A DNA stretch of 64,000 nucleotides from Hadesarchaea archaeon (GTDB lineage Archaea; Hadarchaeota; Hadarchaeia; Hadarchaeales; Hadarchaeaceae), in assembly GCA_004375695.1 (NCBI GenBank), contig SOKQ01000014.1, positions 2,067 through 66,066 on the forward strand, given 5' to 3'. Shown one piece after another: positions 6,338 through 64,000 of this stretch. The notes beneath the pieces are model-generated. The model searched no databases and was not told the DNA's origin. It saw only the letters and a program-made list of their open reading frames with translations. Every line of letters starts with the position of its first letter. Position 1 is the stretch's first letter. Both the position numbers and the translations under genes were made by a program.

Positions 6338-6454
6338 CCCGCGGTAACTCAGTTTGGTAGAGTGGTCGGCTGTAGACCCAAGCCGAAACCGACAGGATCG
6401 TCTAAAAGGCGATCCCGGGATATGTCGCCGGTTCAAATCCGGCCCGCGGGACCA
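6338..6454 (+). tRNA. tRNA-Tyr(GTA) with apparently two introns, CCA encoded
   Basis: Acceptor CCCGCGG/CCGCGGG, D-arm ACTC..GAGT, anticodon arm GTCGG-CTGTAG[~12 nt]A-CCGAC, then ~28 extra nt (hairpin ggatcg..cgatcc) before T-arm GCCGG-TTCAAAT-CCGGC. Confidence 0.65.
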
Positions 6455-6488: not shown

Positions 6489-6612
6489 GGACTGGCGGTC
6501 ATAGCGGCGGGGCAACACCCGGTCTCGTCAGACCCCGGAAGTTAAGCCTGCCAGCGATTCGGACTGTACTCTTGTGCGAGAGCCAATGGGAACTCCGAGA
6601 CGCTGCCAGTCC
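6489..6612 (+). rRNA. rrf: 5S ribosomal RNA (orphan, not next to 16S/23S)
   Basis: Terminal helix ggactggcgg/ctgccagtcc; internal CCCGGAAGTTAAGC and GGGAAC 5S signatures; ~124 nt. Confidence 0.85.
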
Positions 6613-42129: not shown

Positions 42130-42217
42130 GCCGGGGTAGCCTAGCCAGGTAAGGCGCAGGTTTGGAGAACCTGTGGTCCTTTGGGCCTCAGGGGTTCGAA
42201 TCCCCTCCCCGGCGCCA
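42130..42217 (+). tRNA. tRNA-Ser(GGA), class II, CCA encoded; attL of the integrated element
   Basis: Acceptor GCCGGGG/CCCCGGC, anticodon arm CAGGT-TTGGAGA-ACCTG, long variable arm, T-arm AGGGG-TTCGAAT-CCCCT. Confidence 0.9.
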
Positions 42218-42479
42218 CCTTTCGAACGGAAGGGGCGTTATTGGGAGAGTTTCCGTTTTCACCCGCGTTACGGAATTCCGTTGCACCGTTACAGTTTTCC
42301 GTAACGCTTGAGAGAACTTGGAGCAGCCATCGCCTCGACCAGTCGTTGCGCTTGAGCACCGGAACTTCGTGCTCGAACTTCAGCAGTTTGGCCCGGATGC
42401 GGTGCTTCATCACGCGGTCATAATCGGGGTTGCCGGTTCCACCTTCCGTCAAAAATTTGAGTTCGGACTTACTCAGCAT
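42141..42479 (-). pseudogene. SSV-type integrase, N-terminal partition int(N), reading into the tRNA
   Basis: ORF ends ...VRKVAPGRGFEPLRPKGPQVLQTCALPG, with the last ~25 aa encoded antisense to the tRNA-Ser 3' half. Confidence 0.75.
42159..42227 (+). repeat. att direct repeat, copy L (69 bp, anticodon loop to 10 nt past CCA)
   Basis: 68/69 identical to 44303-44371 (single t/g difference at 42188 vs 44332), counted by hand. Confidence 0.9.
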
Positions 42480-43182: not shown

Positions 43183-43323
43183 TTAAGTTTTAAAATTTGA
43201 AAGCACCCGCAGGTTCGCGTTGTCGTATATCCGCTTCAATCGTTCGGGGCTGAAATCCGTGTAGTGCCGTGCTAAGACCGACCTCGGAACTCGACGGCAA
43301 AAACGCGCCAAAAACCAAGCGGA
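43183..43323 (-). pseudogene. Integrase C-terminal remnant (~45 aa)
   Basis: Hand translation: SAWFLARFCRRVPRSVLARHYTDFSPERLKRIYDNANLRVLSNFKT, preceded by an in-frame stop. Confidence 0.55.
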
Positions 43324-43501
43324 TTAGCAACGCTTTTTCTTTTTCGGATTTTTCTTCTTTCGCATCATAGATTTCACCATTGGAACATGTTCTGAGAAGA
43401 TAAAAGACTTTACCATTAGTTAGTTCATCACCTTGGCTTCACAATCTCATCGATTTTCGCGCGCCTTTACACGAGAACCTTCAACCCCGCCTTATCGTAG
43501 A
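43199..43501. repeat. ~300-bp repeat, copy 1 (integrase 3' end plus downstream remnant)
   Basis: Aligns by eye along its full length with 63685-63983, with scattered substitutions and small indels. Confidence 0.8.
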
Positions 43502-44362
43502 TCCGCTTCAACCGCTCCGAGCTGAAGTCTGTGTAGTGCCTTGCCAGCACGCTCCTCGGAACCCTTCCGCAGAAAGCATCCACGTATCGGTCGGCAACTC
43601 CCAACTCGCCCATCTCGGAGCAGAACCAATCTCTCAAGATTTGGGGCGTGATGTGAACTCCTGTTCGCTCCTTCCCTTGAACGTCTTCCGGACCGCCTTC
43701 TCCGAGAACAGTTTAGAATCCAGCGTTAGTTCCCCGCGCCCGTTGAGGTATTCTTTCAGCGCGTGCTTGGCCTCTTCGTTGAAAAATGTCGCCCATGTTC
43801 GTTTGGTCCGGCTGCCATCGCCTTTCGGCAAGACCGTGCGCCTTTCAAGGTCGATTTCCTTTAGCGCAAGGGAGATTAACTCATGCTTTCGCAACCCGGT
43901 TGTGGCATACATCAAGAAAATCGCTCTTTCTCTGGACGACTTGAGTGCGGTATAGAATTTTTGGACGTCCTCTTTTGTGGGGACTGTCTTGAGTTTGAAC
44001 GGCGTGTGGGGCAGCCTGAAACTTTCCACGACCTCGCCCATGCGCATGAAGTCCCTGAAGAACCGGCGCAATGCGATTATCAGGTTCGCCCGCGTTCGCT
44101 CGCGCTTCTCCTTAAATCCTGCGAGATAATTTCGGATGTCGACATCCGTGATCCCGCTAGGGGCTTTCTTAACTGATTTAAAGAAGCGCCTAATTTTCTG
44201 CGCGTGCCCCTTAACCGTATTCTCACGTAATTGTAGGTCAACTTCGCAGAACTGTTTAAAGGAGGCGAGCAACCCGTCCACGTCTAAGGGCGATAAGTTC
44301 TGGGTTTGGAGAACCTGTGGTCCTTTGGGCCGCAGGGGTTCGAATCCCCTCCCCGGCGCCAC
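43467..44362 (-). pseudogene. SSV-type integrase, C-terminal partition int(C), with a frameshift
   Basis: ORF 43634..44362 starts in attR (VAPGRGFEPL...). The catalytic end KERTGVHITPQILRDWFCSEMGELGVADRYVDAFCGRVPRSVLARHYTDFSSERLKRIYDKAGLKVLV is in another frame. The shift is at the G-run near 43672-43677. Confidence 0.8.
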
Positions 44363-44371
44363 CTTTCGAAC
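44303..44371 (+). repeat. att direct repeat, copy R (partial tRNA-Ser 3' half)
   Basis: 68/69 identical to 42159-42227. Confidence 0.9.
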
Positions 44372-46795: not shown

Positions 46796-46902
46796 GCGGG
46801 GGTGGCCGAGTCAGGTCAAAGGTCTAACGACCGACTAAAGGTGCCAGCTTGAGGGGCTGGTCCCGTAGGGGTTCGCGGGTTCAAATCCCGTCCCCCGCAC
46901 CA
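46796..46902 (+). tRNA. tRNA-Leu(GAG), class II, with ~19-nt insertion (intron) in the D-arm region, CCA encoded
   Basis: Acceptor GCGGGGG/CCCCCGC, anticodon arm CCAGC-TTGAGGG-GCTGG, variable arm tcccgtaggggttc, T-arm GCGGG-TTCAAAT-CCCGT. Extra tctaacgaccgactaaagg lies between GTCAAAGG and TGCCAGC. Confidence 0.7.
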
Positions 46903-46953
46903 TTTTACCAGTAAGCTATTTATGGGCCAAAATCTATCTAAATTTGGGTTTGA

Positions 46954-47475
46954 ATGGGAAAAACCGAGACGATAAAGAAAAGGGCCGTGTACGTCTACCT
47001 GCCCTCAGAGGAAACGGCCGAGCGGTGGAAGCAGCTGGCCAAGCGATCTCACGCATCTATATCGAAGTTCGTCATCGAGCGCGTTGAGGACTCGCTCCAC
47101 GGGGAAGGGGAAGAGGGATACCCAAAGCGCGCCGAGCTCATAAAGCAATTGAAGGAACTCGGGGCAACTTTGGCGGCGCGTGAGCAGGAGAACGAGATTC
47201 TGAGACGCGCTTACGAGAGGCTGGACTCCGAACTCAGGCGCTACAGGGCTCAACCATTTCTCGAGGAAGGATTTCAAGGGGTGAGGAGATACGACCGGAA
47301 ATTGGTGAACGTGTTGAGGCAGGGAAAGGTCGTCGGCAGCGATGAGATACTGGAGAGGCTAGGGATCGAGCCCAGCGAAGCCGATTTGGTCAAGGCCGTG
47401 AGCAGGCAGCTTGAGGGCCTCGAGGCATACGGATTGGTAAAAGCCACCGCGAGGGGATGGAAATGGACGGGCTGA
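46954..47475 (+). CDS. RHH-like N-terminus / coiled coil / wHTH-like C-terminus DNA-binding protein
   Basis: 173 aa; KKRAVYVYLPSEETAERWKQLAKRSHASISKFVIERV (RHH-like); overlaps the integrase start. Confidence 0.45.
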   Translation: MGKTETIKKRAVYVYLPSEETAERWKQLAKRSHASISKFVIERVEDSLHGEGEEGYPKRAELIKQLKELGATLAAREQENEILRRAYERLDSELRRYRAQPFLEEGFQGVRRYDRKLVNVLRQGKVVGSDEILERLGIEPSEADLVKAVSRQLEGLEAYGLVKATARGWKWTG

Positions 47476-48428
47476 CTTTATCCCAGTATTCTGGGCAACA
47501 TCGGGTTCCCGGCACTCAGGAGCTGATCGGGGGATTCGAACAGGACTGCACGGACCGGGGGCTCACCGGGGAGACAACGAGGCACTACGTACACGTGCTG
47601 AAGCTCTTCTCGAGATTCGTCGAGAGTCAGGGCATCTCCCCCCTCGATGTCGACAAGTACGTGCTGAGGAATTTCATTCGACACAGGCGGGCCGGGGGGG
47701 TGGAGTCGAAGACGTTGAAGAACGAGCTATCAGCCCTGTCAGCGTTCTACGGTTATCTCTGCTTCGAGGGCCTCGTGCAGACCAACCCCATCTCCCCGGT
47801 CCGAAAGCGGTTCCTAAAGGGTTACAAGGGAGGGCTGGATGACCCGCAGAGGAAGCTGATTTCGGTGGGGGAGATGGCGAAGCTCGTGAACTCCGTGCTG
47901 GATCCCAGGGATAAGGCGATAATCCTCTTGCTTGCTAAAACAGGCGTGCGGAGGGGTGAACTCATATCCATGGATGTGGACGACATAGACTGGGCCAAAC
48001 AATCGATAATCCTCAAGCCCAAGCGGAAAAGAAGCAACAGGATCGTATTTTTCGACGACGAGTGCGCGAGGGCATTAAAGCGCTGGCTGAAGGTGAGGGG
48101 TGAGCTCAAACCGAAAACCGAGGCGCTCTTCGTCGGGGCTGGATGGGTTCGGCTGAAGCGAAATGGAGTTTACTCGCTCGTATGCAAGCACGCTCAAAGG
48201 GTCGGGCTTCACGATTCCAAGTCGCCCAAGCTCGAAGATCATCTCACTCCGCACTGCTTCAGGCACTGGTTCACGACGTGGTTGCGAAAAAATGGGATGT
48301 CCCGCGAGTTCATCCAAGAACTCAGAGGGGACAGGCGGAAGGAGGCTATAGACATATACGACCACATAGACCGCGCTGAGCTGAGAAAAGCGTACTTAGC
48401 CTGCATCCCGCAGCTCGGCGTAGCTTGA
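47457..48428 (+). CDS. Tyrosine recombinase/integrase (XerC/D-like, non-partitioned)
   Basis: TGVRRGEL (Arg I), HLTPHCFRHWF (H-x-x-R), GDRRKEAIDIYDH (His/Tyr region); 323 aa. Confidence 0.85.
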   Translation: MEMDGLTLSQYSGQHRVPGTQELIGGFEQDCTDRGLTGETTRHYVHVLKLFSRFVESQGISPLDVDKYVLRNFIRHRRAGGVESKTLKNELSALSAFYGYLCFEGLVQTNPISPVRKRFLKGYKGGLDDPQRKLISVGEMAKLVNSVLDPRDKAIILLLAKTGVRRGELISMDVDDIDWAKQSIILKPKRKRSNRIVFFDDECARALKRWLKVRGELKPKTEALFVGAGWVRLKRNGVYSLVCKHAQRVGLHDSKSPKLEDHLTPHCFRHWFTTWLRKNGMSREFIQELRGDRRKEAIDIYDHIDRAELRKAYLACIPQLGVA

Positions 48429-50940: not shown

Positions 50941-51334
50941 ACAACTCCCCTCCCCGTCTTTTTTCTGCTCTGAAGGGGAGGGACGGGAAGAGAAGAGGGA
51001 ACGGGTCATGTCCCGTCCGGCGAGAAGGGAACCGCCAAGCCCACGCCGCGCTTCGGGAACGCCACGCTTCGGGAACGGGAAGGGAAAAGGGACGGCCCCC
51101 ACGCTCGCCTCCCGTCCCTTCACCACCCGTCCAGCGGCGAGGGGTCCGGGACGGGAAGGGACGAGGGAACGGGCAGTTTCTCGGGCGAGGTGCTCACCGT
51201 CTCCCCTCGCTTCCCCGCAGTTGTTTTTTCGCGCGTTTTTTTCGGGAGACAAAAGGGACGTGTCGGGAGACGGGAGGAGGGAGAGCGAAGGGAAGAGGGA
51301 CCGGGGAACCTCTAAGCAGCATTGGTCATTCGTC
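50941..51334 (+). repeat. G-rich/C-rich block repeat region A
   Basis: Alternating C-rich (ctcccctccccgtc, cctcccgtcccttcaccacccgtcc) and GGGA-rich blocks. Shares a 70-nt unit (51233-51302, 67/70 identical to 61144-61213) and an exact 20-mer (51314-51333 = 61094-61113) with region B. Confidence 0.8.
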
Positions 51335-51437: not shown

Positions 51438-51809
51438 ATGGCTTCGAGCAAAGAAGTTGAAAGGAAAGCGATTAAACTGGTAATGAAAAAGTTGCACATT
51501 GTGGATATTCCGCCTTACAAACAGGCCCCAGCCGACATACATGAAAAGGAAAATCAGAAGAAAAGAGCTGAAGCTTTGAAAACTGAAGCAGAAAAGCTAT
51601 TCGAAAATCAGATGAGGGGAAAAGTACACCTAAAAGTTGAATATCACAGGCATAAAGGGAGGTCTGACGCAGCCAACATAATCGGCGGTATAGCTGATGC
51701 TTTGAACAAAATAGCGTATGTTGATGATAAGCAAATAGTAGAAATCCATTACCATGAAGCATTAGGGAAAGTTGACGAGTACTGGGTAGAGATAGAGGAA
51801 GTAATATAG
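51438..51809 (+). CDS. RusA-like Holliday junction resolvase
   Basis: GRSDAANIIGGIADALNKIAYVDDKQIV matches the RusA pattern D-x-D/A-N-x6-DAL-x6-DD-x-Q-V; 123 aa. Confidence 0.55.
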   Translation: MASSKEVERKAIKLVMKKLHIVDIPPYKQAPADIHEKENQKKRAEALKTEAEKLFENQMRGKVHLKVEYHRHKGRSDAANIIGGIADALNKIAYVDDKQIVEIHYHEALGKVDEYWVEIEEVI

Positions 51810-52375: not shown

Positions 52376-52467
52376 GCCGTTTCCCCCCGAGCCGTTTCGC
52401 GCGCTATGGGACGGGACGGGTGGAGTGAATGAAGGGAAGAGGGAAAAGGGAAATTCATCATTTGGCA
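52376..52467 (+). repeat. G-rich repeat region C (R1 unit)
   Basis: gccgtttcc..ccgtttcgcgcgctatgggacgggacgggtggagtgaatgaagggaagagggaaaagggaaattcatcatttggca aligns with 60795-60884 with few differences. Confidence 0.8.
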
Positions 52468-52649
52468 AGCAACCTAATCCATAGACCCTCAAGAAGTTTC
52501 AAGTTTAAGCTGGCGTCAATTTGTTCATTTAAGATTTTTTTGTAAGCTTCAATATGTTTATTTTTGTAAGGTAGGACAGGCGGCAACCTTTGTAGCCTAC
52601 TTTGCAGTTCACTAACATGTTCTAAGGTTGCTTTGTTTTTATTTAAACT
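52458..52649 (-). pseudogene. Start-less 63-codon ORF in frame with and downstream of the HEPN gene
   Basis: SLNKNKATLEHVSELQSRLQRLPPVLPYKNKHIEAYKKILNEQIDASLNLKLLEGLWIRLLAK; no ATG/GTG/TTG near its 5' end; a related remnant lies at 60875-60955. Confidence 0.3.
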
Positions 52650-52673
52650 TTAAGCGCCCTACCCCACGTACAG

Positions 52674-53519
52674 TTACTTGCCAGTAAAAATACGATCCAA
52701 TTCGGCGATTTTCGGCTTTAGCCTTGGCTGCTCCCGAGGATAATAGTACCCGCTGTCTGTAAGGCCAAAATATTTCCTTTGAATCAAGTCGTGCAACTCG
52801 TGCAACAATTCATTATGAGAGCAACTATATGAAATATACTCCTCGTGCGTCAAAAGAACCGGTACTTTCTGTTCAGGATTTTTGCGAAATTTCAAATACT
52901 GTGGATGAAGTTTTATATTTCCATTAATTGGTATCGCTTGTTTTTCATAGGATTCGTGAAAGAGCCCGCGGTGATGCATGAAAAGATTTCGCAATCTTCT
53001 AGCCTCGTCGACATCAAGACATACCTCCGGCAATCTGTTTATCGCTTCCTTATAGCCCCCACTGTAGATGGATTCTTTATTAGGGATAACAAAATCAAAA
53101 GCCCTTTCCAAAAGAGTTTTGTATCCGCCGAGTTCTGGGTTTATACCTTTAAATATCGAATCATGTTCATTTTCGTTCAAATGTGCCGCAAATGATCGTA
53201 GCGCAACTTCGAATATGGCAACCAACACTATTAGAGAAGAACGTGTATGGTAGAATTGAAATTTTTCATCCATTTGTTTAACGAGAATTTTCGGAGAATA
53301 TGTTATAACCCAACCGCGGGTAAAAGGAAGAACTTTTTCAGGAAGTCTTGAGATTTTATCTTCAGGAGATGCACTTTGAACAGATGCATTAACATATTGA
53401 AAATAACCAAGAACATCTTTCATCAAATAATCAGCAAATTCAAACTCGTCAAGTATTTTAATATCCCGACCCAAATTGTCTCTTTCCGCCTTGTGTTCCT
53501 CGCTCTTTTCGCCAGTCAT
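52674..53519 (-). CDS. HEPN-domain protein (Abi-like predicted RNase)
   Basis: 281 aa; Rx4H motif in EARRLRNLFMHHRG; helical C-terminal half. Confidence 0.55.
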   Translation of the reverse strand: MTGEKSEEHKAERDNLGRDIKILDEFEFADYLMKDVLGYFQYVNASVQSASPEDKISRLPEKVLPFTRGWVITYSPKILVKQMDEKFQFYHTRSSLIVLVAIFEVALRSFAAHLNENEHDSIFKGINPELGGYKTLLERAFDFVIPNKESIYSGGYKEAINRLPEVCLDVDEARRLRNLFMHHRGLFHESYEKQAIPINGNIKLHPQYLKFRKNPEQKVPVLLTHEEYISYSCSHNELLHELHDLIQRKYFGLTDSGYYYPREQPRLKPKIAELDRIFTGK

Positions 53520-53647
53520 TCTCCCGCCACCACTACCCGGTCTTTATTCTCTTGCTTGTGTTTATGAAAGTATGTTCTAAACCGCGTCACAGACGTGAAT
53601 CAAGCGCCCGCGCCCGACTTTCTACTGCAGATTGGAAAGTAAATTGT

Positions 53648-53917
53648 CTATGCTGGCTTTAAATATGCCAAATACTTCTTTTCCCCATCGAGGAGCATAC
53701 ACTTGCCATCTGGAGTGGGCTCGCCACCGAGTTTCATGCAAGTTACGCGGTCCACCCTAGTCACCTCACGATCTCGCTCAGCAATACACGTGACGAAATC
53801 ACGTGCGACGTTGATGAACCCGTAGAACGGTCCGCCTGTGACCGTCCCCGCAACACCCGCGGGTGCTGCCCTCTTGGCGCACCTTACAGCCTTCTCGATT
53901 CTTTTTTTGTTTTCCAT
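53648..53917 (-). CDS. Hypothetical protein (89 aa)
   Basis: ORF only; GC-richer than its neighbours. Confidence 0.3.
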   Translation of the reverse strand: MENKKRIEKAVRCAKRAAPAGVAGTVTGGPFYGFINVARDFVTCIAERDREVTRVDRVTCMKLGGEPTPDGKCMLLDGEKKYLAYLKPA

Positions 53918-54138
53918 TTTTATCGCCGATTGAACCGGCTCATGTGCCTATTTAAGTTTTTAGTGCTGCACTAAATAGCACCAAATATCTTTATGCCCCA
54001 AATCACGACCTGCGCCCAAACTCCCTACCGCAGCGGGTTAGGTTGCCGGTCCGGGTGGTTTGGCTTTCTCGTTCTTTTGTATCCGACACCCTAATTTAAT
54101 TTGGTCATAAGCCTATTCATTTTTAGTGGTGTGGGAAA

Positions 54139-54861
54139 ATGGCAGAGGACCTAGTTACAATATTTCTGATAGGTATACTGGGTGTCGTCGTCGGTGGTAT
54201 AATCACTTTTGCGGTACAAAGAAACCTTCAAGAACGAGAGTGGAGAAAGAAGAGAGCAGAAGAAATTTACGCGCCTCTTTTAGATCAGTTAAGCGACATT
54301 GAAGCAAATCTTTATAAATTGACAAAGGACCCATCTTACCCTGAATGGAGCAGGATGAGAGAAAAACATTTAGTGCATTTTATTGAACCAAAACTTAAAG
54401 ACAGACTTTTGACCCTCTTCATAGAGTTACATAATTTCAATATTTACCTCAGAGTAGCGATAAATAGGATAAAAGAACCAATGAAAAAAGAGATTTTACA
54501 AAGATTAAAAGAAGAGCATAAGGATGAGGTTCAAAGAAGCACACCTTTCTTAGATGAAGCGTTTTTTTGGGACGGGTTTGCTAAACTCGTTCTTAAAAAA
54601 GAGGACAGTGGAGGATTTTTTGGGTTTATACATGATGCGCCTTTGCTGGAAAAAGAGTATGGTGAATTAGAAAAACATTTTGAAACGAGATATCCTTTCG
54701 ACGATTTTATAAAGGATTTTGCTTCAAAAATTAAGGATGATCCCTTTTTTAGGGATGGGGATTTTAAAAGGGAGTTACGGGATCTCGTTGCCAAAACTCA
54801 AGAATTGAAAGGCGAGGTAGAGAAAAAATTGGGAATTTTCAAAAAAGAGGAGTGGGACTAA
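54139..54861 (+). CDS. Hypothetical N-terminally membrane-anchored helical protein
   Basis: TM helix LVTIFLIGILGVVVGGIITFAV followed by a charged helical region; 240 aa; AT-rich. Confidence 0.45.
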   Translation: MAEDLVTIFLIGILGVVVGGIITFAVQRNLQEREWRKKRAEEIYAPLLDQLSDIEANLYKLTKDPSYPEWSRMREKHLVHFIEPKLKDRLLTLFIELHNFNIYLRVAINRIKEPMKKEILQRLKEEHKDEVQRSTPFLDEAFFWDGFAKLVLKKEDSGGFFGFIHDAPLLEKEYGELEKHFETRYPFDDFIKDFASKIKDDPFFRDGDFKRELRDLVAKTQELKGEVEKKLGIFKKEEWD

Positions 54862-54862
54862 T

Positions 54863-55369
54863 TTAACTGCTTAAAACAAGCGCCCAAGGTAATATTGGGT
54901 TCGGGATTGCTCTATTCTCAAAGAAAAAATGTGCATTAATCGGGTCACGGGGGTGTAATCTTTCCCTAATTTCGGCGTTCGGGCCTGGGTGATCGGGAAA
55001 CAGGACGATCCCGACCGATGACTCATCCGTCTCATGGGCACTCCACCCCACGCTGGTCGGCCGTTCCAAGCGCCACATACCACCGCGCTTTCGGGCGATC
55101 ACAGGCGCGGCACATTTCACCTCGACGAAAGTGGGAGGGGATCCGCGGCTTCCTAATAGCGCCACCCTACCCTAACCCCTAGCATAGCCCACTAGTGAAG
55201 TTTTGGGACTCCCAGTTTTTTCCTGCTCGTCGGAACCCACTTTAGACTTCGAACCCCACATACCCGGGGCGAGCAATTCACCGACGCGCGTTGGAATATG
55301 CGCAGAGGATAACAAGAAAACAAGCATATGTACTCTCAGCAAGGCAATCAAAAGTATATGCCACACCAA
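54863..55369 (-). pseudogene. Hypothetical ORF interrupted by one in-frame TAG
   Basis: ORFs 55172..55369 and 54863..55165 are in the same frame, separated by TAG at 55172-55174; the patch is GC-rich within AT-rich surroundings. Confidence 0.3.
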
Positions 55370-55654
55370 CCATCTCCAAAATCGAGAACCCTCATGGCCC
55401 GAGTTTTGGATGGTTCATGCCAAACGTGTAAGATTTTTTCAGTATGTTTAAGTGTCTTACCTAAACAAGAGATCGGGTTTCTGATTATATGTACGCATGG
55501 TCTCTTTAGAGGAAGAATATTTGCTCTTGGAACAAAATATAGCCAGTAGTTTTTGCTGAATCCCCCGGGAAATTGAACGTATAACCAAAATGTTTAAGGT
55601 AGACTTGAACAAATAAAAAATTGACTGGGGGCTAGAAATTAGAGGTCGAGAAGT

Positions 55655-56254
55655 ATGTGTAAATCTCTCCTGTCCAGTATCCATGATAAGTTCTACTCCT
55701 TGAAATTGCCTAGTGAACCATCTAAAAATCTTGTTGAGAATTTGAGCGATAAGCAAAAGCAACTCTTGAGTAAATCTATCATGCGACTTGCTTTTATCAA
55801 GAGCTTAAATGCAGATGAAAAACTTGTTGAGTATACCAATGCAATTCGCGTTTCACTGTTCACGCCGATATGTGAGAAATGGGAGCCATCAAAGAAAGAT
55901 ATTGAAAACAAAGTTAGGGATTTCTTTAGATTGGTTGATAAAAAAATAGTGCGAGAGCTGGACAGTTCTTTTAAAGTGTATAACGGTGAATCTAAAGATT
56001 TCGTTTGGGTACTTACCCACACTAGGCACAATACGATTCACCTAGACACCAACACTATACTCCCAGAAGCTGATGGAGCAGTTTCCTTAAAACATGGAGA
56101 AAAGCCCCCAACCATGATGACGGGGTTCAGAGTATACGTTAGGAAGGAGGATAGGAATTATTCTATCACCTTCCATAAATCGACAGATAAGGTTATTGAT
56201 TTGTTAATCAAATCTTTTGCTTCTTACCTAACCAATAAATTTTCTTCACACTAA
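55655..56254 (+). CDS. Hypothetical protein (199 aa)
   Basis: AT-rich ORF; no recognisable motif. Confidence 0.4.
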   Translation: MCKSLLSSIHDKFYSLKLPSEPSKNLVENLSDKQKQLLSKSIMRLAFIKSLNADEKLVEYTNAIRVSLFTPICEKWEPSKKDIENKVRDFFRLVDKKIVRELDSSFKVYNGESKDFVWVLTHTRHNTIHLDTNTILPEADGAVSLKHGEKPPTMMTGFRVYVRKEDRNYSITFHKSTDKVIDLLIKSFASYLTNKFSSH

Positions 56255-56341
56255 ACTACAAACCTCACTATTACCCGACTTTTTCACAATCTCAGCCCCC
56301 TAGGTGCGTTCAAGCCCGTTTCGGGGCCTGAAAACGAGTCA

Positions 56342-56668
56342 TCAGTCCACGCCGTATCTTTCCAAACGTTTTTTAATTTCGAGAACTTCACCTATTTGTG
56401 ATGCCTTATACCTATGCAAGTCTCCATTAAAAGCGGAGAGAATCCCCCCCGCCATACCTACTGTCGCAATGATTCGGAGTATATTATAGGCTGGATTTGC
56501 TATAATTGCTATAAAAGTCACGGCAAAAATTGAGAAGAACACCGCGGACCAAGATATTGAAACGTAACATCTGCTTTTCTCAATACGATATTCAGCCAAC
56601 AAAAACTGAATGTCCTCTTTACGCAACTTTTGTTTTGGTTTCCAACGGGTTCGTCGACATAACTTCAT
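56342..56668 (-). CDS. Small 2-TM membrane protein coupled to the voltage-sensor protein
   Basis: Basic N-terminus, TM1 VSISWSAVFFSIFAVTFIAIIA, TM2 ILRIIATVGMAGGILSAF; ATG overlaps the upstream stop (ATGA). Confidence 0.5.
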   Translation of the reverse strand: MKLCRRTRWKPKQKLRKEDIQFLLAEYRIEKSRCYVSISWSAVFFSIFAVTFIAIIANPAYNILRIIATVGMAGGILSAFNGDLHRYKASQIGEVLEIKKRLERYGVD

Positions 56669-57144
56669 GCGCGATCCCTCCTCTCGCCCCTTCGTCGTCG
56701 GAATTTCTTCACCGTCTTCCTCAGCTTTGGCATCTTCCGTGCTAGCTTAAGTGCTTTCGCCGCTTTGGTGACCTTCGCTGCCTTTGTAACCTTTACAACT
56801 CTCGTCACTTTCGCAACCCTAGCAACTCTCGCAATTCTGGCAACCCTCGCTACCCTGAACAGCCTAAACGCGCGGATTATGCTCATCTCCATTACAAGGG
56901 CTGGAATCGAACCCAAGATGTCTGCCCAGCTATCGCGTAGGCAGCCCCTTTTGGATGGCGCCTTATGGAACCTGAGACCGAACTCGGTTATGAAGATCGC
57001 GCATACCCCAAGGTCAATCCATCCAAAAAGCCCCTCTTGTTCGGGGGTCGGCTCGAAAACGAGCGACACGACAAGTAAGCTCAGCGCGAAAATCGCCAGC
57101 CCAGCCATCGCAATATCGGTACCTCCTAACTTTTCTTGTCCCAT
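56665..57144 (-). CDS. Stand-alone voltage-sensor domain (S1-S4) protein, no pore domain
   Basis: S2-like WIDLGVCAIFITEFGLRF, S3-like SWADILGSIPALV, S4 RAFRLFRVARVARIARVARVAKVTRVVKV... with R/K at every third residue; ORF ends in a basic tail. Confidence 0.65.
   Translation of the reverse strand: MGQEKLGGTDIAMAGLAIFALSLLVVSLVFEPTPEQEGLFGWIDLGVCAIFITEFGLRFHKAPSKRGCLRDSWADILGSIPALVMEMSIIRAFRLFRVARVARIARVARVAKVTRVVKVTKAAKVTKAAKALKLARKMPKLRKTVKKFRRRRGERRDRA
56740..56874 (-). repeat. Degenerate 9-nt (3-codon) periodic tract encoding the extended S4 helix
   Basis: About 15 consecutive units of ARR-GTN-GCN type (agg gta gcg / agg gtt gcc / aga att gcg ...). Confidence 0.7.
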
Positions 57145-57326
57145 GGTTCCCCAGGATTGATTTAGCTAAGGCACCTAAAACCAATATTCAAGAGCCAGAG
57201 GGCTTGCTCGTTCGATGGTATTCAAAAGAACCTGAATAATCCGCGATTTATGGGTCAGCGCCGCGCCCACATAAGTGTTTTTAAAAGCAGAACTTAATAT
57301 GAATTTGAAAAACGCACCGTGATGAA

Positions 57327-58526
57327 ATGAACAAATTTACTAACTTGATAATTGATCCTTCGAACCTTCGGTCGCTTTTTCACCCACAAAATAAATTTAT
57401 GATTTTTAAACGTTTAGCAGTTTACGAAAAAATTTACATAGATAAACTTTTAATGACTCAAACTGCGGAGATTGTGGGAAATAATGTTCTTAAAAATGTT
57501 TTAAAGAAACTAGAAAAGCGCAATCTAGTAAACTACATTGACACAACCCAAATTATTAGAAAAAATTCAGGTAAATATAAAGAATGGTTTGAAGATGACC
57601 TAAAATTGTTTGAAGACAATGTGCTGAATATGTGGCTTATCAGGAGGATTAAAGAAAAAAATTATGTGGTCCCCTTATTTCAAACATTGGGTGTTCAATC
57701 GTTATTATCTCATCTTAGATATGCGCAAAAGAAAAATGGGATCTTACTTATTCCTCCATGGCTGGTGGAAGAGGCCATACAACTTTCAAAGAAAATCAGC
57801 GATTTGGATACCGAAAAATTAAAAGCAGGTATTAAGCACGTGTTCGTGAGCAGTTTTCTTATTAGAGAATATGCCCCTCGCTTTCAGATTGATAAAGAAA
57901 ATATTGCAGTTTTTTTAGATGCAATCAAAAAATCGTCATATCTAAATGATTTTGTCACTCTGAAAGTAAAGGAATTCCGAGGTTATTTGCTGCGAGAAGC
58001 AGAGAGAGAAAGTATAAAAAGAACTATATCGCGCGCCGAACAAAACATGTTAGAAATAAAGAACGGTCTTCTAAGAGATTTAAAAATGGATCTAGGTTTT
58101 GATCTCGCTTCGGATGCTGTCCGCGCTTTGATTTCGAGTTCGATTCCAGGCGTAGGGGCCGCGAAAACCCTAATTACTCATGCTACTGAAAAACATAGGA
58201 TTAAAAAACAAAAACTGGAATGGATTGTTTACCTACGGATTATTAGGGCTTTTCAAACAAAAGGGGAAGAGAAACTAGGCCCGTGCGATATTTGCGCTCT
58301 TTCCATGAGTGAAATTAATAGCATGAACGAGGAAGAAGCCGAGAGCATGGTTTTCTCAGGAAGCATGTGTGAAGGTCATACCATCCTTTACTTAAACATA
58401 AGAAAACAAACTCAGGCTACTGGGAAAGATTTGCTTAGACTTATGAAAAAATATGAAAATTCAGAGGCTCACCGCTTAGGGGCCCCGCTCGGTGGAGCAT
58501 TCATCTGGAAAAAAAGAGAACACTGA
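57327..58526 (+). CDS. Hypothetical protein (399 aa), very AT-rich
   Basis: Long uninterrupted ORF in AT-rich DNA; divergent from the voltage-sensor operon; no motif recognised. Confidence 0.5.
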   Translation: MNKFTNLIIDPSNLRSLFHPQNKFMIFKRLAVYEKIYIDKLLMTQTAEIVGNNVLKNVLKKLEKRNLVNYIDTTQIIRKNSGKYKEWFEDDLKLFEDNVLNMWLIRRIKEKNYVVPLFQTLGVQSLLSHLRYAQKKNGILLIPPWLVEEAIQLSKKISDLDTEKLKAGIKHVFVSSFLIREYAPRFQIDKENIAVFLDAIKKSSYLNDFVTLKVKEFRGYLLREAERESIKRTISRAEQNMLEIKNGLLRDLKMDLGFDLASDAVRALISSSIPGVGAAKTLITHATEKHRIKKQKLEWIVYLRIIRAFQTKGEEKLGPCDICALSMSEINSMNEEEAESMVFSGSMCEGHTILYLNIRKQTQATGKDLLRLMKKYENSEAHRLGAPLGGAFIWKKREH

Positions 58527-58556
58527 ACCTTCTTTCCCCACCAGTTTTAAATATGA

Positions 58557-58700
58557 AAAGAACGATGGGGCACAAATCATTACGTCGATGCGTTCTGCGG
58601 AAGGGTGCCGAGAAGCGTGCTGGCGAGGCACTACACGGACTTCTCGTCGGAACGGTTGAAGCGGATATACGATGGTGCGGGCCTGAAGGTGCTCGAATAG
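58557..58700 (+). pseudogene. Integrase C-terminal remnant (plus strand)
   Basis: Hand translation KERWGTNHYVDAFCGRVPRSVLARHYTDFSSERLKRIYDGAGLKVLE, preceded by an in-frame TGA. Confidence 0.55.
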
Positions 58701-58931
58701 ATTTGATGGCAGGACGGGGACATAGAAACTCAAAAACAACCAAATGGACAACCGAGGAAAAATTGGCGCATGAGGCGGGTGGTACGGGGAAACCCTGAAG
58801 GCAGAGACAGCAACTGAGAAAAGCCTCCAGCAGCAGTAATTGATGCTTTGCCTCGATGGGCTGTTTCTTCATCTCATGCATGGTATTTGGTTTTGTGCGG
58901 ACAAATCAGTCCGTAATCACATTCCCCGCAA

Positions 58932-59324
58932 TTAGCGGAGGGGCATGCCGTGAATTCTTCTGACAGGATGCTCTTCACGACACTTTTTATTTCCTCCTTG
59001 GGATCCACCACTCGCGTACATGTACAAAATTATTGAGCTAGTAAATAGCAATAAGATTCGGGATTTATCCAATAAAAAGCTTAGAGAAATCGGGAGAGAG
59101 CTTAATTTTTTCCCTGGCGCTAGAAAAATCACGTTGTATTTGGACATTCTCTTGCTGAAATTAGTAACATGCCCCCTGCCAGTAATCAAGAGTACTTTTT
59201 CCGCATGGGGAGCCGGCTTGTATATTTTTTTAAGCCTTCCTCCCGAAACATCAATGTTTGGTTCTTCAACAAGTCCTGCCCCCCATAAAATTTTCAAATC
59301 TCTCCGTTTTGCAGCCCCAACCAT
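58932..59324 (-). CDS. Hypothetical protein
   Basis: ORF only; AGLVEE..GGRLKKIY is faintly wHTH-wing-like. Confidence 0.2.
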   Translation of the reverse strand: MVGAAKRRDLKILWGAGLVEEPNIDVSGGRLKKIYKPAPHAEKVLLITGRGHVTNFSKRMSKYNVIFLAPGKKLSSLPISLSFLLDKSRILLLFTSSIILYMYASGGSQGGNKKCREEHPVRRIHGMPLR

Positions 59325-59388
59325 CTCTTGTAGTGCCCCTTACCCCCATGTGGGCGCCAGAGATCGCGGGATTTTGGACCCCAATAAG

Positions 59389-59796
59389 TCAGGCCCGCCC
59401 AAACCATCCTTTCATGGCGTTGTTCTTGCCGGACATGTTAATGGCAAATAATCCTAAGATTGTTGCGAATACTAAGAGGTAACCTGCTTCTTGTGTTGCG
59501 TCTAAGATCATCAAACCACTGATGAAGGCCAATCCAACAGCAATAATACCCACGATTCCACCCACCCCATGAACTTTTTTCAAAATTGTTAACGTGTATG
59601 TAAGGGACAAGATAGACAAGGAAAATAGTAAGATTGAAATCACATATGGTGGGATACTAAGACCACCCAACGCCCCAAGGATCGTGCCATATGGGTCTAG
59701 CCCTGTCCTCAGGAATAGCCCCCCCACAAAACCCGTAAAACCTCTTCCGCCCAACAAGGCATCATTCATTAGTTTTCTCTTTTCTTCTGATGTCAT
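59389..59796 (-). CDS. Hypothetical polytopic membrane protein (135 aa)
   Basis: Gly-rich hydrophobic segments (GIVGIIAVGLAFISGLMIL, YLLVFATILGLFAI). Confidence 0.45.
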   Translation of the reverse strand: MTSEEKRKLMNDALLGGRGFTGFVGGLFLRTGLDPYGTILGALGGLSIPPYVISILLFSLSILSLTYTLTILKKVHGVGGIVGIIAVGLAFISGLMILDATQEAGYLLVFATILGLFAINMSGKNNAMKGWFGRA

Positions 59797-59965
59797 GTTT
59801 ATCCCACTAGAACCCGCGCGTCATTTTTTAAACGGGTTCCCACCCACCCATTATCTTCCACAAGCCTCCAGCCCCAAGGCTTGACCGCCAAGAACCTTTA
59901 AAACCTTACTTCCGGGCATGTCTTACGTTATTCTCGACGCTACTTTTTTGGTTTTCTAGAAGTTA

Positions 59966-60373
59966 CTAGATTCTAGAAGTTACTATAAAATAAAAAACCC
60001 CAATAACCAAGACAGGGATTGCATAAAACCAGAGTAACAAGTCTGGTGGAATTATGTTCATCTGGTGGATAAGCGCTGCTAAGAGTGTAAATGCTATCAC
60101 CCCACTGAGCAAAAACGAACTTGCGCGGTGTAAACGAGTTTCTCTCTGCTCTTCAATTTTTCCTGCAACGTCGAATCCCTTTCCAGTTAATAGTACCCCA
60201 TAGTAGTTGTGCTCAACTAACTTCTGTTCTTTCAAGAATCCCAAATTGTGTATTAATTCTTCATCAGAAATTTTCAATATTCCTTTCAATTCCTTAAACC
60301 AACTACTATTTGTGAATTTCGGTGCAAGGGAAAAATCTGCTCTCTTTTTTCCTCGTTTAGACTCAGTACCCAT
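59966..60373 (-). CDS. Hypothetical protein with C-terminal 2 TM helices
   Basis: Start set at MGTESKRGKK within ORF 59966..60514; C-terminal ASSFLLSGVIAFTLLAALI and LLLWFYAIPVLVIGVFYFIV. Confidence 0.4.
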   Translation of the reverse strand: MGTESKRGKKRADFSLAPKFTNSSWFKELKGILKISDEELIHNLGFLKEQKLVEHNYYGVLLTGKGFDVAGKIEEQRETRLHRASSFLLSGVIAFTLLAALIHQMNIIPPDLLLWFYAIPVLVIGVFYFIVTSRI

Positions 60374-60749
60374 GGACTTTCTTTGGTATATTACAAGGAG
60401 AATTTTTTTCCAACCCGTCCTAATTTTCAGCCCTTTCTTCCGACGAGTTCGCCAAGACGACTTCATGCACAACACAATTAATCCATTATGGGCCCCACTT
60501 CTTAAAACTGCCACGAGGTAGAAGATACGAAAGAACCTTTGATTTATCTTCCCCTCCGAGTTCCGTCGTCGAACCCCGAAAAAATTCAGAATTACTTTTT
60601 ATCTTTTTCTATTGGCGTGATTGTGATTTCTGTTGGGCTTTTACCCATGCAAATGAGCAATTTGTTAGTTTTTAACCAATTCGAAATCTTTGCTTGATTT
60701 AACTTACACAACAGTGCTTTTATCCGGAGAAACGAGGTCGAACTCGCGC

Positions 60750-61262
60750 GGTTATCCCTGCCCTCCCCTCACCGCCCTCACGTCCCTTCCCCCTGCCGTT
60801 CCCCCAGGCCGTTTCGCGCGCTATGGGACGGGACGGGTGGAGCGAATGAAGGGAGGAGGGAAAAGGGAAATTTATCATTTGGCACGGAGAAACCAAACAC
60901 GCCCGTCCTCAAGCCCTTTCTTTCGTGAGTATTCTAGCGGGGGGAAACAGGAGACGGGAGAAGGGAGAGCGATCAGTCAGGCATCATCGTTCCAGCATTT
61001 TCCCTCCTCCTCACTGTCTCCCCTCCAGCGCGATTTTTTTAGGGACCAAGGACGGGTAGAGGGAGAGCGAAGGGAGGAGGGAGAGCGAATTTCAAGCAGC
61101 ATTGGTCATTCGTTTCGTTTTTTTCCCACTTCACGTTTTCTCGGCGTTTTTTTCGGGAGACGGAAGGGACGTGTCGGGAGACGGGAGGAGGGAGAGCGAG
61201 GGGAAGAGGGACCAAGGAAGGGAGAAGGGATCTAAACATCAGCCAAGTGCCATCCACTCGTT
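60750..61262 (+). repeat. G-rich/C-rich block repeat region B
   Basis: Contains the R1 unit (60795-60884), the 20-mer (61094-61113), the 70-nt unit (61144-61213) and further diverged GGGA-rich units. Confidence 0.8.
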
Positions 61263-61393: not shown

Positions 61394-62803
61394 ATGAAAA
61401 TTGATAAGGGGCGATCGTTCAACATGGCGAGTACTATTAAGATAACGGCCCGAACCGAAAAGAAAGAAATTGGAGGTCAAGTTTTCACGCCAGAACCAAT
61501 CGTGGCCCTCATGGTGGAAAAACTCTTTCAAAGAAAGCATCCAAAGCGCGACGACAGCGTTCTCGATCCAGGTTGCGGCGCCGGTGCTTTCATTAAGGGG
61601 GTCTTAAACTGGTGCACACGTAAGGGCATTGAAGCCCCCCGCATCGTCGGAATCGAATTTGACTCTAAACTTTTGGGCGAGGCTCGAAAGTCATTTGAAG
61701 GTCTAGAAAACGTCACATTGATAAATGAGAACTTTTTGCTTGGGGACTTCGAGACCTTCGATTTTATTATAGGCAACCCACCTTACGTTCGCCTTGAAGG
61801 ATTAAGCGAATCCGAGCGTGAGACATATCGGAAAATGTTCGATACCGCCGTAAATCGATTCGACCTCTACATGCTTTTTTTCGAGAAGGCGTTAAAGAGT
61901 CTGAAGCCCTCTGGACGTCTCGTTTTTATAACGCCAGAAAAATACGAATATACCTTGACAACCAAGCCCCTTAGGAAACTCATGGCTAGGTACCATGTAG
62001 AGGAAATCCACCACATTAGCGAGGATGTTTTTAAAGACCTTGTGACGTATCCAACAATCACAACAATCAACGGAAGCGGGCGGGGGCCAACCAAGGTCAT
62101 CCACCGAGATGGATCTTCAATCACTATCAAAAAAATTCCTGCAGATGGGTCTAGGTGGGTTTTGGCCATTAAAGGAGGGGCCGAGCCTGTCAGACTTGGC
62201 CCAGTTCTAGCAGACGTGTGCCTGCGCATCAGTTGTGGAGTAGCGACTGGCGCTGACGAAGTCTTTGTGATGCCCAAGGAAGGGGTCCCAGAATCCTTGA
62301 AACCCTATGCCCACCCAACCATTGGCGGGGAACAATTGACTAAAGGTGTTAGAGCCTCGGATGTGATGCTCATCCCTTATGACAGATCGGGGGGGCTTCT
62401 CCCCGAGGAGAAATTGAAAAATTTCAAGCGCTGGTTCTCTAAGCACAAGAAACACCTTTCATCTAGGTATTGTGTCAGGAAAGGAAAGCATAAGTGGTAT
62501 TCGTTTCACGAGAATCCACCCATGTCCGACATACTCAGGCCGAAGATCCTGTGTAAGGACATCGCTAAAGAACCTAAATTCTGGACCGATCCAGAAGGCA
62601 ACATCGTGCCTAGGCACTCAGTATACTATATCGTTCCTAAGGACCCCAAGATTCTGTATGGGTTCCTCGGTTACCTAAACAGCGAGAAGGTTCATAGGTG
62701 GCTAGTGGCCCGATGCCAGAGGGCCGCAAACGATTTCATGCGTCTACAGTCCAGCGTACTGAAAGATATTCCGATCCCTTCTAAGTGGGTTGAGAGACAA
62801 TGA
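61394..62803 (+). CDS. N6-adenine DNA methyltransferase (gamma-class, Eco57I/TaqI-like)
   Basis: VFTPEPIV, SAM motif VLDPGCGAGAF, catalytic GNPPYV; 469 aa; start may be 61424. Confidence 0.85.
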   Translation: MKIDKGRSFNMASTIKITARTEKKEIGGQVFTPEPIVALMVEKLFQRKHPKRDDSVLDPGCGAGAFIKGVLNWCTRKGIEAPRIVGIEFDSKLLGEARKSFEGLENVTLINENFLLGDFETFDFIIGNPPYVRLEGLSESERETYRKMFDTAVNRFDLYMLFFEKALKSLKPSGRLVFITPEKYEYTLTTKPLRKLMARYHVEEIHHISEDVFKDLVTYPTITTINGSGRGPTKVIHRDGSSITIKKIPADGSRWVLAIKGGAEPVRLGPVLADVCLRISCGVATGADEVFVMPKEGVPESLKPYAHPTIGGEQLTKGVRASDVMLIPYDRSGGLLPEEKLKNFKRWFSKHKKHLSSRYCVRKGKHKWYSFHENPPMSDILRPKILCKDIAKEPKFWTDPEGNIVPRHSVYYIVPKDPKILYGFLGYLNSEKVHRWLVARCQRAANDFMRLQSSVLKDIPIPSKWVERQ

Positions 62804-63680: not shown

Positions 63681-63808
63681 TTAAGAAAGCACCCGCAGAT
63701 TTGCGTTGTCGTATATGCACTTTAGTCGTTCGGGGCTGAAATCCGTGTAGCGCCGTGCTAAGATTGACCTCGGACTCGACGGCAAAAACGCGCCAAAAAC
63801 CAAGCAGA
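63681..63808 (-). pseudogene. Integrase C-terminal remnant (copy 2, more decayed)
   Basis: ...VLARRYTDFSPERLKCIYDNANLRVLS; counterpart of 43183-43323. Confidence 0.5.
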
Positions 63809-63983
63809 TTAGCAACGCTTTTTCTTTTTCGACTTTTTCTTCTTTCGCATCATAGATTTCACCATTGGAACATGTTCTGAGAAGATAAAAGACTTTACCA
63901 TAAGTTCATCACCTTGGCTTCAACAACCTCGTCGATTTTCGCGCACCTTTACACGAGAACCTTCAACCCCGCCTTATCGTAGA
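63685..63983. repeat. ~300-bp repeat, copy 2
   Basis: Aligns with 43199-43501. Confidence 0.8.
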
Positions 63984-64000
63984 CCCGGCGTTTCCCCGAG
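63949..64000 (-). CDS. 3' end of a second SSV-type integrase gene (continues beyond the window)
   Basis: ...SGKRRVYDKAGLKVLV stop; parallels ...SSERLKRIYDKAGLKVLV of int(C) at 43467. Confidence 0.5.
   Translation of the reverse strand, partial: SGKRRVYDKAGLKVLV

Follow-up and report, generated by a model that had tools for sequence, protein, structure and literature searches.

Pore-less Kv-type voltage-sensor proteins with a lengthened S4 helix in integrated-element or variable DNA of Hadesarchaea

Can a voltage sensor persist in a prokaryote without the pore that it usually controls? This question is raised by a gene in a 64-kb part of the Joint Genome Institute (JGI) metagenome contig Ga0247413_1738389 from a Hadesarchaeon; this whole stretch of DNA is called the window in the following. 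The gene encodes a 159-amino-acid (aa) protein that consists of the four transmembrane helices of a voltage-sensor domain (VSD), S1 to S4, and a polybasic extension. According to a 2023 review, every prokaryotic VSD carries a K+, Na+ or Ca2+ pore, a statement checked there by database searches (PMC10377628). The same review and another from 2024 describe Hv-type proton channels as absent from bacteria and archaea, and a 2025 review on modular channel evolution gives only eukaryotic examples of VSDs outside pore-forming channels (PMC12332018). The first-pass annotation of this DNA, made from the sequence alone, knew of no described operon with a stand-alone VSD in archaea, and we likewise found neither stand-alone prokaryotic VSDs nor VSDs in defense systems in the searched literature, which omits most subscription-journal papers. 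From the analysis below, the architecture is real, conserved and previously undescribed, and stands out by its occurrence in a prokaryote, its location on mobile DNA and an S4 with roughly double the normal count of charges. The pore-less family is a conserved counter-example to the statement that every prokaryotic VSD has a pore (PMC10377628).

The sensor gene and the parts of its product are located as follows, with the evidence in brackets; helices were taken from an AlphaFold2 (AF2) model, with confidence given as predicted local distance difference test (pLDDT).

56665..57144, minus strand: gene of the pore-less VSD protein, S1 to S4 plus polybasic extension (open reading frame (ORF) of 159 aa)
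57055..57123, minus strand: S1 helix, residues 8–30, core without an acidic residue (AF2, pLDDT ~87; hydropathy)
56962..57045, minus strand: S2 helix, residues 34–61, with D44 and F51-x-x-E54 (AF2; family invariance; NavMs alignment)
56908..56952, minus strand: S3 helix, residues 65–79, with the inner acidic D75 and the motif SWADILGSIP (AF2; D75 invariant in the family and in its 6-TM relatives)
56737..56874, minus strand: S4 and its extension, 16 consecutive R/K-x-x triplets, residues 91–136 (residue count; AF2; DNA periodicity)
56689..56742, minus strand: conserved, Pro-kinked C-terminal basic motif ARKMPKLRKTVKKFRRRR (family alignment)

The sensor ORF and a second, partly overlapping ORF discussed further below were found on the minus strand at the positions given by the first-pass annotation, with the motifs it had named and a real ATGA overlap between them. 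Its reading of the longer product as S1–S4 elements without an S5–P–S6 pore also held, and the pattern lies well outside what chance would produce. Pfam Ion_trans matched residues 17–116 (E=2.3e-9, 37.3 bits, curated cut-off 25), corresponding to profile positions 10–117 of 241 and therefore to S1–S4 only, and the Ion_trans_2 pore domain (PF07885) had no Pfam match in the protein. When the profile of the VSD family was compared by hhalign with that of six-transmembrane (6-TM) K+ channels, a probability of 99.5% (E=2.6e-22) was obtained, again confined to S1–S4. A phmmer search against the PDB sequences aligned residues 17–116 with the sensors of NavMs, NaChBac, the Kv1.2-2.1 paddle chimera and KvAP. 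In this comparison D44 and F51 fell onto the outer acidic residue and the hydrophobic plug of NavMs, E54 and D75 onto its inner acidic residues, and the same set also matched D48/D58 of the 6-TM relatives in the alignment.

A gating-charge transfer center can thus be recognized, made up of F51-x-x-E54 in S2, D75 in S3 and the outer S2 acidic residue D44 seven positions before the Phe. As judged from the alignment, all residues that would define a working voltage sensor (outer acidic D44, plug F51, inner acidic E54 and D75) are invariant in the family, as are R91 and R94. The S1 helix (MAGLAIFALSLLVVSLVF) has S22 and S27 as the sole polar residues of its core and no acidic one. The loop charges follow the positive-inside rule, with an acidic S1–S2 loop (EPTPEQEG) and a basic S2–S3 loop (RFHKAPSKRGCLRD), as expected for a topology with both termini inside. 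The S3–S4 loop is short, about 4–6 residues, and contains in the pore-less family a three-residue insertion (MEM), within which E-M is invariant. Every sequence-level test that we applied places the 159-aa protein in the VSD superfamily, and among its members not with the voltage-gated channels, Hv1 or the voltage-sensing phosphatases (VSP). One family member carries the automatic JGI name 'voltage-gated potassium channel', which is a misannotation.

The sensor gene has two candidate start codons, M1 (57144, 159 aa) and M13 (57108, 147 aa). M13 is the JGI gene call and has an AGGAGG 12 nt upstream. We favor M1 because L6 and D10 are conserved in homologs and in the 6-TM relatives; the Logan call is M1, too. 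Opposite the sensor gene lies a 131-aa antisense ORF (56765–57160, plus strand; TLATLATLA...) that could mislead gene callers. We rejected it as a gene, since the Pfam match and the low ratio of nonsynonymous to synonymous substitutions (dN/dS) belong to the minus-strand frame. We take this ORF for a mirror image of the R/K-x-x repeat, from which its apparent conservation elsewhere also results.

S4 was described by the first-pass annotation as carrying R or K at every third position before a basic tail, and this pattern extends over the 16 consecutive triplets listed above. The helix starts with RAFRLFRVAR and lacks a Trp. From R91 to the C-terminus the net charge is +27, and across the family that of the tail ranges from +13 to +27. 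Members of the pore-less family have 8–16 basic triplets in S4 (mode 15), compared with 7–8 in the 6-TM relatives, one of which has 11; the number of S4 charges is here about twice the usual one. Length differences in S4 among members are multiples of three residues, and the DNA shows a periodicity of 9/18/27 nt. In the shortest member, P0014, a parent-like S4 is directly followed by the conserved tail. From this junction, the extra triplets behave as a basic spacer of variable length between S4 and a Pro-kinked, basic amphipathic helix.

This terminal helix follows the family consensus K(L/V)ARKxPKLRKTVKKF, with R136, K137, P139, K140 and K147 invariant and L141, K143 and T144 nearly so, while L141, V145 and F148 share one face. 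The end motif is better conserved than the length of the tail. After the start of S4 the protein consists of the 69-residue basic tail alone, with no further Pfam or NCBIfam domain and no cytosolic catalytic domain.

The AF2 model, computed with the family alignment, consists of S1 (8–30), S2 (34–61), S3 (65–79) and a single 72-residue helix (87–158). Its mean pLDDT is 78.9, with values of 87–92 for S1–S3. In a Foldseek search against the PDB, all top 50 matches were VSDs or channel chains containing one, including the isolated sensors of KvAP and Ci-VSP (4g80, TMt 0.59). The TMt values lay at 0.55–0.59 with a probability of ~1, while the E-values were weak, as usual with small helical bundles. 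The four-helix sensor fold, whose failure to appear the first-pass annotation had regarded as decisive against its reading, was thus obtained as a prediction. The same model yielded nothing meaningful against viral structures (BFVD).

We searched 5.8 billion proteins and scanned species-representative genomes, metagenome contigs and IMG/VR. The protein search delineated a pore-less family of 17 clusters (89–163 aa, 47–89% identity) with Ion_trans as the only domain, plus one fusion protein. Scores then drop from ~90 to 72 bits, and beyond this gap all matches are full 6-TM K+ channels of 190–284 aa with ~30–40% identity. Genome and metagenome scans yielded eight loci, and together with contigs from an exact protein look-up there are 13 distinct loci. 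All four loci from the genome collection belong to metagenome-assembled genomes (MAGs) of Hadesarchaea/Hadarchaeota, and each taxonomically labeled locus is from Hadesarchaea. The IMG/VR scan returned no relative of the family; hence, there is no direct evidence of a viral nature.

Pairwise dN/dS of the sensor genes is 0.08–0.31, at synonymous distances (dS) of 0.1–2.4 that reach past saturation. Twelve intact loci from independent samples share a common truncation point and the conserved new C-terminal motif. Pore-coding remnants, which the first-pass annotation had named as the mark of a decayed channel fragment, were absent: neither tblastn with pore domains nor a six-frame search with hidden Markov models (HMM) detected S5–P–S6 in any frame of the window or of ten loci (best E>1). 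These genes constitute a small family of pore-less, voltage-gated-K+-channel-type (Kv-type) voltage-sensor proteins under purifying selection and related to 6-TM K+ channels, an identification we hold with high confidence.

The closest known relatives are small prokaryotic 6-TM voltage-gated K+ channels (PF00520 plus PF07885; P0018–P0024; KvAP-like in the PDB), whose S1–S4 are homologous at 32–40% identity. Both groups have in common the motifs APSK and WxDLxxSIP as well as the D/F/E/D set of counter-charges. Compared with these channels, the VSD family lacks the S4–S5 linker, S5, the TVGYGD selectivity filter and S6, whereas its S4 is lengthened to at most 16 triplets and followed by a new basic tail, and the MEM insertion is added. 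The family appears to be derived from 6-TM K+ channels by loss of the pore rather than to be ancestral.

In another Hadarchaeota MAG we found a frameshifted, decaying copy of the sensor gene (L008 7934–8335, the same as L021 5415–5816) that adjoins a DUF234/ATPase_2 gene and in which the part from S3 through S4 to the tail is still readable. Such a copy is expected for dispensable cargo.

The second ORF, which follows the sensor gene, encodes a small protein with two transmembrane helices (2-TM), and the junction is arranged as follows.

56677..56681, minus strand: Shine-Dalgarno-like GGAGG within the 3′ end of the VSD gene, 8 nt before the ATG of the 2-TM gene (sequence)
56665..56668, minus strand: ATGA stop/start overlap of the two genes (ATG 56668–56666, TGA 56667–56665)
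56342..56668, minus strand: gene of the 108-aa 2-TM protein (ORF; own family of 13 representatives)

The 2-TM protein has a basic N-terminus (RRTRWKPKQKLRKEDIQFLLAEY), two transmembrane helices joined by a loop of ~5 residues and the C-terminal segment KASQIGEVLEIKKRLERYGVD. The first-pass annotation had taken both genes for a co-expressed pair and proposed to look for its conservation in other archaea. A conserved pairing was not supported. By tblastn the 2-TM partner is restricted to three of the 13 loci: the window, of which L002 is a twin contig, L010, and L009, where it is fused. The other ten lack it. The three loci form one subclade, with VSD cores 87–94% identical, and the 4-nt overlap is kept in L010. 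The last ~8 sensor codons (GERRDRA) occur only in this coupled subclade and contain the Shine-Dalgarno-like motif of the 2-TM gene.

Composition breaks at the ATGA overlap, from a GC content of 53.5% in the sensor gene (60% at third codon positions, GC3) to 40% in the 2-TM gene (GC3 39%), which resembles the surrounding island. The dN/dS of the 2-TM gene, 0.71–0.75, is far above that of the sensor gene; between the window and L010, dN is 0.20 for the 2-TM gene and 0.021 for the sensor gene.

An HMM scan of 1.84 billion representatives delimited a 2-TM family of 13 members (P0026–P0038; window protein E=4e-57). They share an N-terminal motif, (R/K)RT(K/R)WKPKQKLRKEDIxxLLxEY, and the C-terminal helix RKASxIAEVLEIEKRLKRYG. 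Two members, P0030 and P0031, are fused to unrelated N-terminal membrane domains (4-TM or 2-TM), two others follow truncated upstream membrane proteins with basic tails, and one follows a housekeeping gene. On low-GC contigs (35–40%), family members occur as tandem paralogs (at one locus) and as fusions (L014 482–1643, L015 223–706). These occurrences suggest a wider, modular family of small unannotated membrane proteins. For the 2-TM protein there was no match in Pfam, NCBIfam, PADLOC or the PHROGs, and its profile found nothing under E=1.6 among the PDB sequences. A degenerate K+ pore was considered and rejected at the level of detectable homology (hhalign 0.7%); the protein has no P-loop.

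At L009 (1312–1983), the protein P0006 is a natural in-frame fusion, in which S4 is cut after five arginines and runs directly into the 2-TM sequence RRTRWKPKQKL. The polybasic spacer and the tail are thus lost completely, and the junction lies at a short similarity (RLFRVAR versus KLFRRTR). The fusion is present on one Logan contig only, so that an assembly artifact is not fully excluded. Its model reached a pLDDT of 79.7 and a predicted template modeling score (pTM) of 0.51. The fusion argues that both proteins work together where both occur. Overall, we conclude that two independent modules became coupled here recently and in one lineage, and that there is no conserved operon; the 2-TM gene, foreign in its base composition, was added from a family of its own.

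We then looked at the surroundings of the sensor gene. The first 46.7 kb of the window contain archaeal core genes (RNA polymerase B/A′/A″, EF-1a, RtcB, SecY, Cbf5, S13/S4/S11, RpoD), and the EF-1a is identical to a Hadesarchaea MAG protein. Beyond these genes an accessory region begins, with the following features.

46796..48428, plus strand: left edge of the accessory region, with a tRNA (46796–46899), a 173-aa ORF and a tyrosine integrase (47457–48428)
51438..51809: RusA
52468..60800, no strand: low-GC segment with the gene pair (42% GC; host part 52.5%), with a copy of an 84-nt repeat on either side
61394..62803: type II N6-methyltransferase, ~4.2 kb from the sensor gene, then a 285-aa ORF without family match

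Between RusA and the methyltransferase lies a run of ORFs without family match, and an MCM helicase follows just past the window end. The GC content drops from ~52–57% to 41–46% between 52 and 62 kb. The accessory-island location given by the first-pass annotation is therefore upheld by the tRNA and integrase, RusA, the methyltransferase, MCM and the drop in GC, which place the gene pair in a part of a Hadesarchaeon chromosome that is variable or belongs to an integrated element. No att duplicate of the tRNA at 46796–46899 was found out to the contig end, leaving the right border of the element undefined.

The immediate setting among HEPN, nuclease and restriction-modification genes found little backing in the window: the methyltransferase is present, whereas no HEPN or nuclease family matched among the immediate neighbors in the window. 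Between 52.7 and 63.7 kb, nine of the ten neighboring ORFs lacked a significant match in Pfam, PADLOC or the PHROGs (the latter searched for eight of the ten), the exception being the methyltransferase. With PADLOC-DB 2.0, the VSD, the 2-TM protein and six flanking ORFs gave no match and the methyltransferase alone did. Among the PHROGs, the VSD matched only phrog_7872, a family of unknown function that resembles ion-transport proteins, over its N-terminal, sensor-equivalent part (positions 17–119 of 254); the 2-TM protein and seven neighboring ORFs had no match.

The flanks of the other loci vary in content. Those with recognizable genes are listed here.

L003, flanks: integrase and a RepB-primase-domain protein
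L005, flanks: tRNA-Ser, HicB-like antitoxin, AbiEii toxin
L019, 9292–9906: HNH directly upstream of the sensor gene (E=7e-11)
L018, 683–1333: weak HNH_2 match directly upstream of the sensor gene; Schlafen AlbA_2 also in the flanks
L011, 3340–4806: weak LAGLIDADG_3 match directly upstream of the sensor gene
L020, flank: NucS_C-like nuclease
L008, flank: DUF234 ATPase

Across the family, nuclease, toxin-antitoxin or integrase genes are thus frequent in the flanks, which have the character of variable or mobile DNA. An all-versus-all BLASTP comparison over the 13 loci revealed no conserved neighbor except integrases and a shared G/A-rich repeat. The sensor gene is a solitary cargo of integrated-element or variable DNA. 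Its GC content is above that of its flanks in several loci, and the homing-endonuclease-type gene upstream of it in three unrelated loci could account for the transfer of a GC-rich sensor gene from one low-GC background to another.

How might such a protein work? Several known systems offer comparisons. With Hv1 it shares the VSD-only build, an S4 running straight into a long cytoplasmic helix, and a precedent for permeation through the sensor. It differs in lacking a mid-S1 Asp (the D112 equivalent) and the Trp of the S4 RxWRxxR motif, the criterion for Hv channels (PMC10377628), in an extension that is polycationic with three-residue periodicity and not a coiled coil with heptad repeat, and in the affinity of its VSD to K+ channels instead of Nav/Cav. 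TMEM266 (HVRP1) and the sensor of Ci-VSP are likewise pore-less and move gating charge without a channel, and in TMEM266 S4 is also extended into a helix (PMC13095418). These proteins are, however, eukaryotic with a coiled coil or phosphatase as output, whereas here we find archaeal mobile DNA, no enzyme domain and a basic rod of 16 triplets. A further parallel is the isolated VSD of Shaker (Shaker-iVSD), a Kv-type sensor from which the pore was removed at the same place, after S4, and which was shown experimentally to conduct, being proton-leaky (Zhao & Blunck 2016, PMC5092046). It is an artificial construct with an S4 of normal length and no polybasic tail, and nothing like it is described from nature. 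By this analogy, the 159-aa protein is possibly its natural counterpart.

Phage holins and antiholins as well as RexB of phage lambda are small multi-pass proteins encoded on mobile elements, with highly basic C-termini and often overlapping gene pairs, and their action depends on or collapses the membrane potential. Size, transmembrane helices and basic tail of the sensor protein would suit a holin or antiholin. The likeness is one of function only, as there is no kinship in sequence or fold and no endolysin or RexA-like partner nearby. No lytic enzyme or virion gene was found near any locus and no holin match in the PHROGs or BFVD, which is weak evidence given that archaeal lysis genes are poorly known.

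Taken as a whole, the best explanation is an autonomous, voltage-responsive membrane module that serves the mobile element; we give it a probability of roughly one half. The protein would still shift its gating charge with the membrane potential, and protons or cations would pass through the sensor itself, as in Hv1 and S4-truncated Shaker. Through such a leak the element could sense the membrane potential of its host or dissipate it, acting as an effector of the holin, exclusion or abortive-infection type. Docking at the membrane surface, oligomerization or the gating range may depend on the polybasic extension and its tail. Where it occurs, the 2-TM protein might be an accessory subunit that docks to the basic tail or, in the fused form, replaces it. 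Permeation of protons or cations as the actual mode of action is put forward tentatively, mainly by analogy to truncated Shaker. Going further, one could see in what would be the first natural prokaryotic pore-less voltage-sensor protein a weapon or switch of the mobile element, made from the sensor of a K+ channel. It would be either a natural 'iVSD' that passes protons or cations under voltage control, or a device similar to a holin and triggered by voltage. The uniquely long S4, with up to 16 gating-type charges, would then serve as a polycationic rod, and the membrane potential would determine its register or exposure. We regard this extension as speculative and rather unlikely.

Several observations weigh against ion permeation in an autonomous module. 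The confidence of AF2 is lowest in S4 (residues 81–120, pLDDT 54–65) and the pTM is 0.50; the low pLDDT of the repeat region is consistent with register ambiguity in the model. The R/K series of S4 is unbroken, and gating-pore leaks in engineered channels usually follow the replacement of an arginine by a smaller residue (PMC13095418), so that with an over-complete S4 a tightly sealed, non-conducting sensor is equally arguable. The selectivity determinants of Hv1, the mid-S1 Asp and the S4 Trp, are absent from the 159-aa protein. A sensor that leaked protons constitutively would be toxic, and the ten loci without the 2-TM gene show no evident regulator. Finally, no lysis, virion or known defense gene is consistently adjacent, which leaves the biological use unanchored.

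A sealed sensor similar to Ci-VSD or TMEM266 would use the polycationic helix and the C-terminal amphipathic motif as its output. The membrane potential would draw the rod into or out of the membrane interface and so allow binding to anionic lipids, to nucleic acid of the element or of incoming DNA, or to a partner such as the 2-TM protein. The unbroken R/K series fits this by keeping an arginine in the hydrophobic plug at any register, and so do the strongly charged tail, the end motif conserved beyond the length, and a K/A-rich part that weakly resembles the basic extension of an L23-type ribosomal protein (NCBIfam E=0.007). In P0006 the basic N-terminus of the 2-TM protein replaces the tail, as if the two were alternative outputs, and other proteins encoded upstream of 2-TM family members likewise have a basic tail at their end; TMEM266 provides the precedent of an S4 extended into a helix in the absence of a channel (PMC13095418). 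However, neither a binding partner nor a nucleic-acid-binding domain was detected, the three-residue charge periodicity suits neither an amphipathic alpha-helix nor a coiled coil, and the short S3–S4 loop limits the travel of S4. We consider a sealed sensor doubtful and rank permeation slightly ahead of it because the exact truncation is known to conduct and because an element-borne, toxin-like membrane protein fits the context.

An explanation closer to the first-pass annotation is that both genes are an obligate two-gene abortive-infection module that senses or collapses the membrane potential upon infection. Translational coupling in the window and L010, the fusion in L009, and the vicinity of the family to AbiEii/HicB (L005), HNH (L019, and weakly HNH_2 in L018), NucS_C (L020), Schlafen AlbA_2 (L018) and the methyltransferase (window) speak for it. 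RexB of lambda, a prophage-encoded multi-pass membrane protein that depolarizes the cell during exclusion, would be a functional analog. An obligate pair is, however, hard to reconcile with a 2-TM gene missing at ten of 13 loci, differing in GC3 (39% versus 60%) and evolving at a dN/dS of ~0.7. PADLOC was blank for both proteins and their immediate neighbors, no neighbor is conserved and no sensor or trigger component could be identified, which makes this module improbable. We judge as still less probable that the VSD is a split or trans-acting channel subunit that co-assembles with a separate pore, be it a 2-TM K+ channel of the host or the 2-TM partner as a non-canonical pore. The P0006 fusion does restore a 6-TM topology with a weak Foldseek resemblance to 6-TM channels (TM ~0.3), and functional co-assembly of Kir2.1 with a VSP-derived VSD is reported in a 2026 preprint. 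That resemblance has a root-mean-square deviation of ~15 Å and concerns topology only, the 2-TM family has no homology to K+ pores, no P-loop and between its helices a loop of only ~5 residues, and no pore gene exists in the window or related loci. As for a functionless pseudogene, a decaying fragment of a full-length voltage-gated channel, it could appeal to the full 6-TM channels as nearest relatives and to the frameshifted L008/L021 copy. It is refuted by the tests run, given the twelve intact loci with one truncation point and a novel conserved C-terminal motif, the low dN/dS and the lack of pore remnants in any frame.

Irrespective of how the protein acts, the family indicates that a voltage sensor is viable and selectable alone in prokaryotes and travels on mobile elements. 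Structural and biophysical studies of how S4 moves could draw on it as a compact, naturally isolated sensor of ~125–160 aa, found in a subsurface lineage of archaea, and an S4 with doubled charge is a natural experiment on how the number and register of charges set voltage dependence. If the sensor conducts or triggers depolarization, it would represent a new effector type in the biology of archaeal mobile elements. To our knowledge, the mechanisms of lysis, exclusion and abortive infection in these elements are largely unknown. Were the weapon or switch interpretation true, the element would read the energization of its host to time depolarization, exclusion or release, and the exchangeable 2-TM module would be the mark of a broader family of archaeal membrane effectors built from two parts.

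Some further observations concern the repeats and RNA genes of the window. Rfam detected two long tRNAs missed by ARAGORN, of 104 nt (46796–46899) and 114 nt (6338–6451), both probably intron-containing. The former immediately precedes the accessory region with its integrase and is a candidate target for integration. A direct repeat of 69 nt with 99% identity lies at 42159–42227 and 44303–44371. Its first copy is the 3′ part of a tRNA-Ser(GGA) plus 10 nt, and the second overlaps the 5′ end of a minus-strand integrase (43467–44362, apparently two split ORFs). The two copies look like attL and attR of a ~2.1-kb integrase-only remnant in a tRNA gene upstream of the S13-S4-S11-RpoD operon.

Some 300 bp from the 3′ region of this integrase (43199–43505) recur 20.5 kb downstream at 63685–63987 with 90–97% identity; this further integrase fragment lies close to where the accessory region has its right side. 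The 84-nt element occurs in three copies with 91–96% identity (52384–52467, 60801–60884 and ~63993–64069, the last extending beyond the window), the first two on either side of the low-GC segment with the gene pair, and a 76-nt repeat is found at 51233–51308 and 61144–61219. A G/A-rich motif of 32 nt (GGGAAGAGGGA...) is present nine times, and this G/A-rich repeat is also found close to the sensor gene of L018. In this group of elements it may have a regulatory role or be similar to miniature inverted-repeat transposable elements (MITE-like). The 5S rRNA gene in the host part (6491–6611), flanked by tRNA genes, is ordinary.

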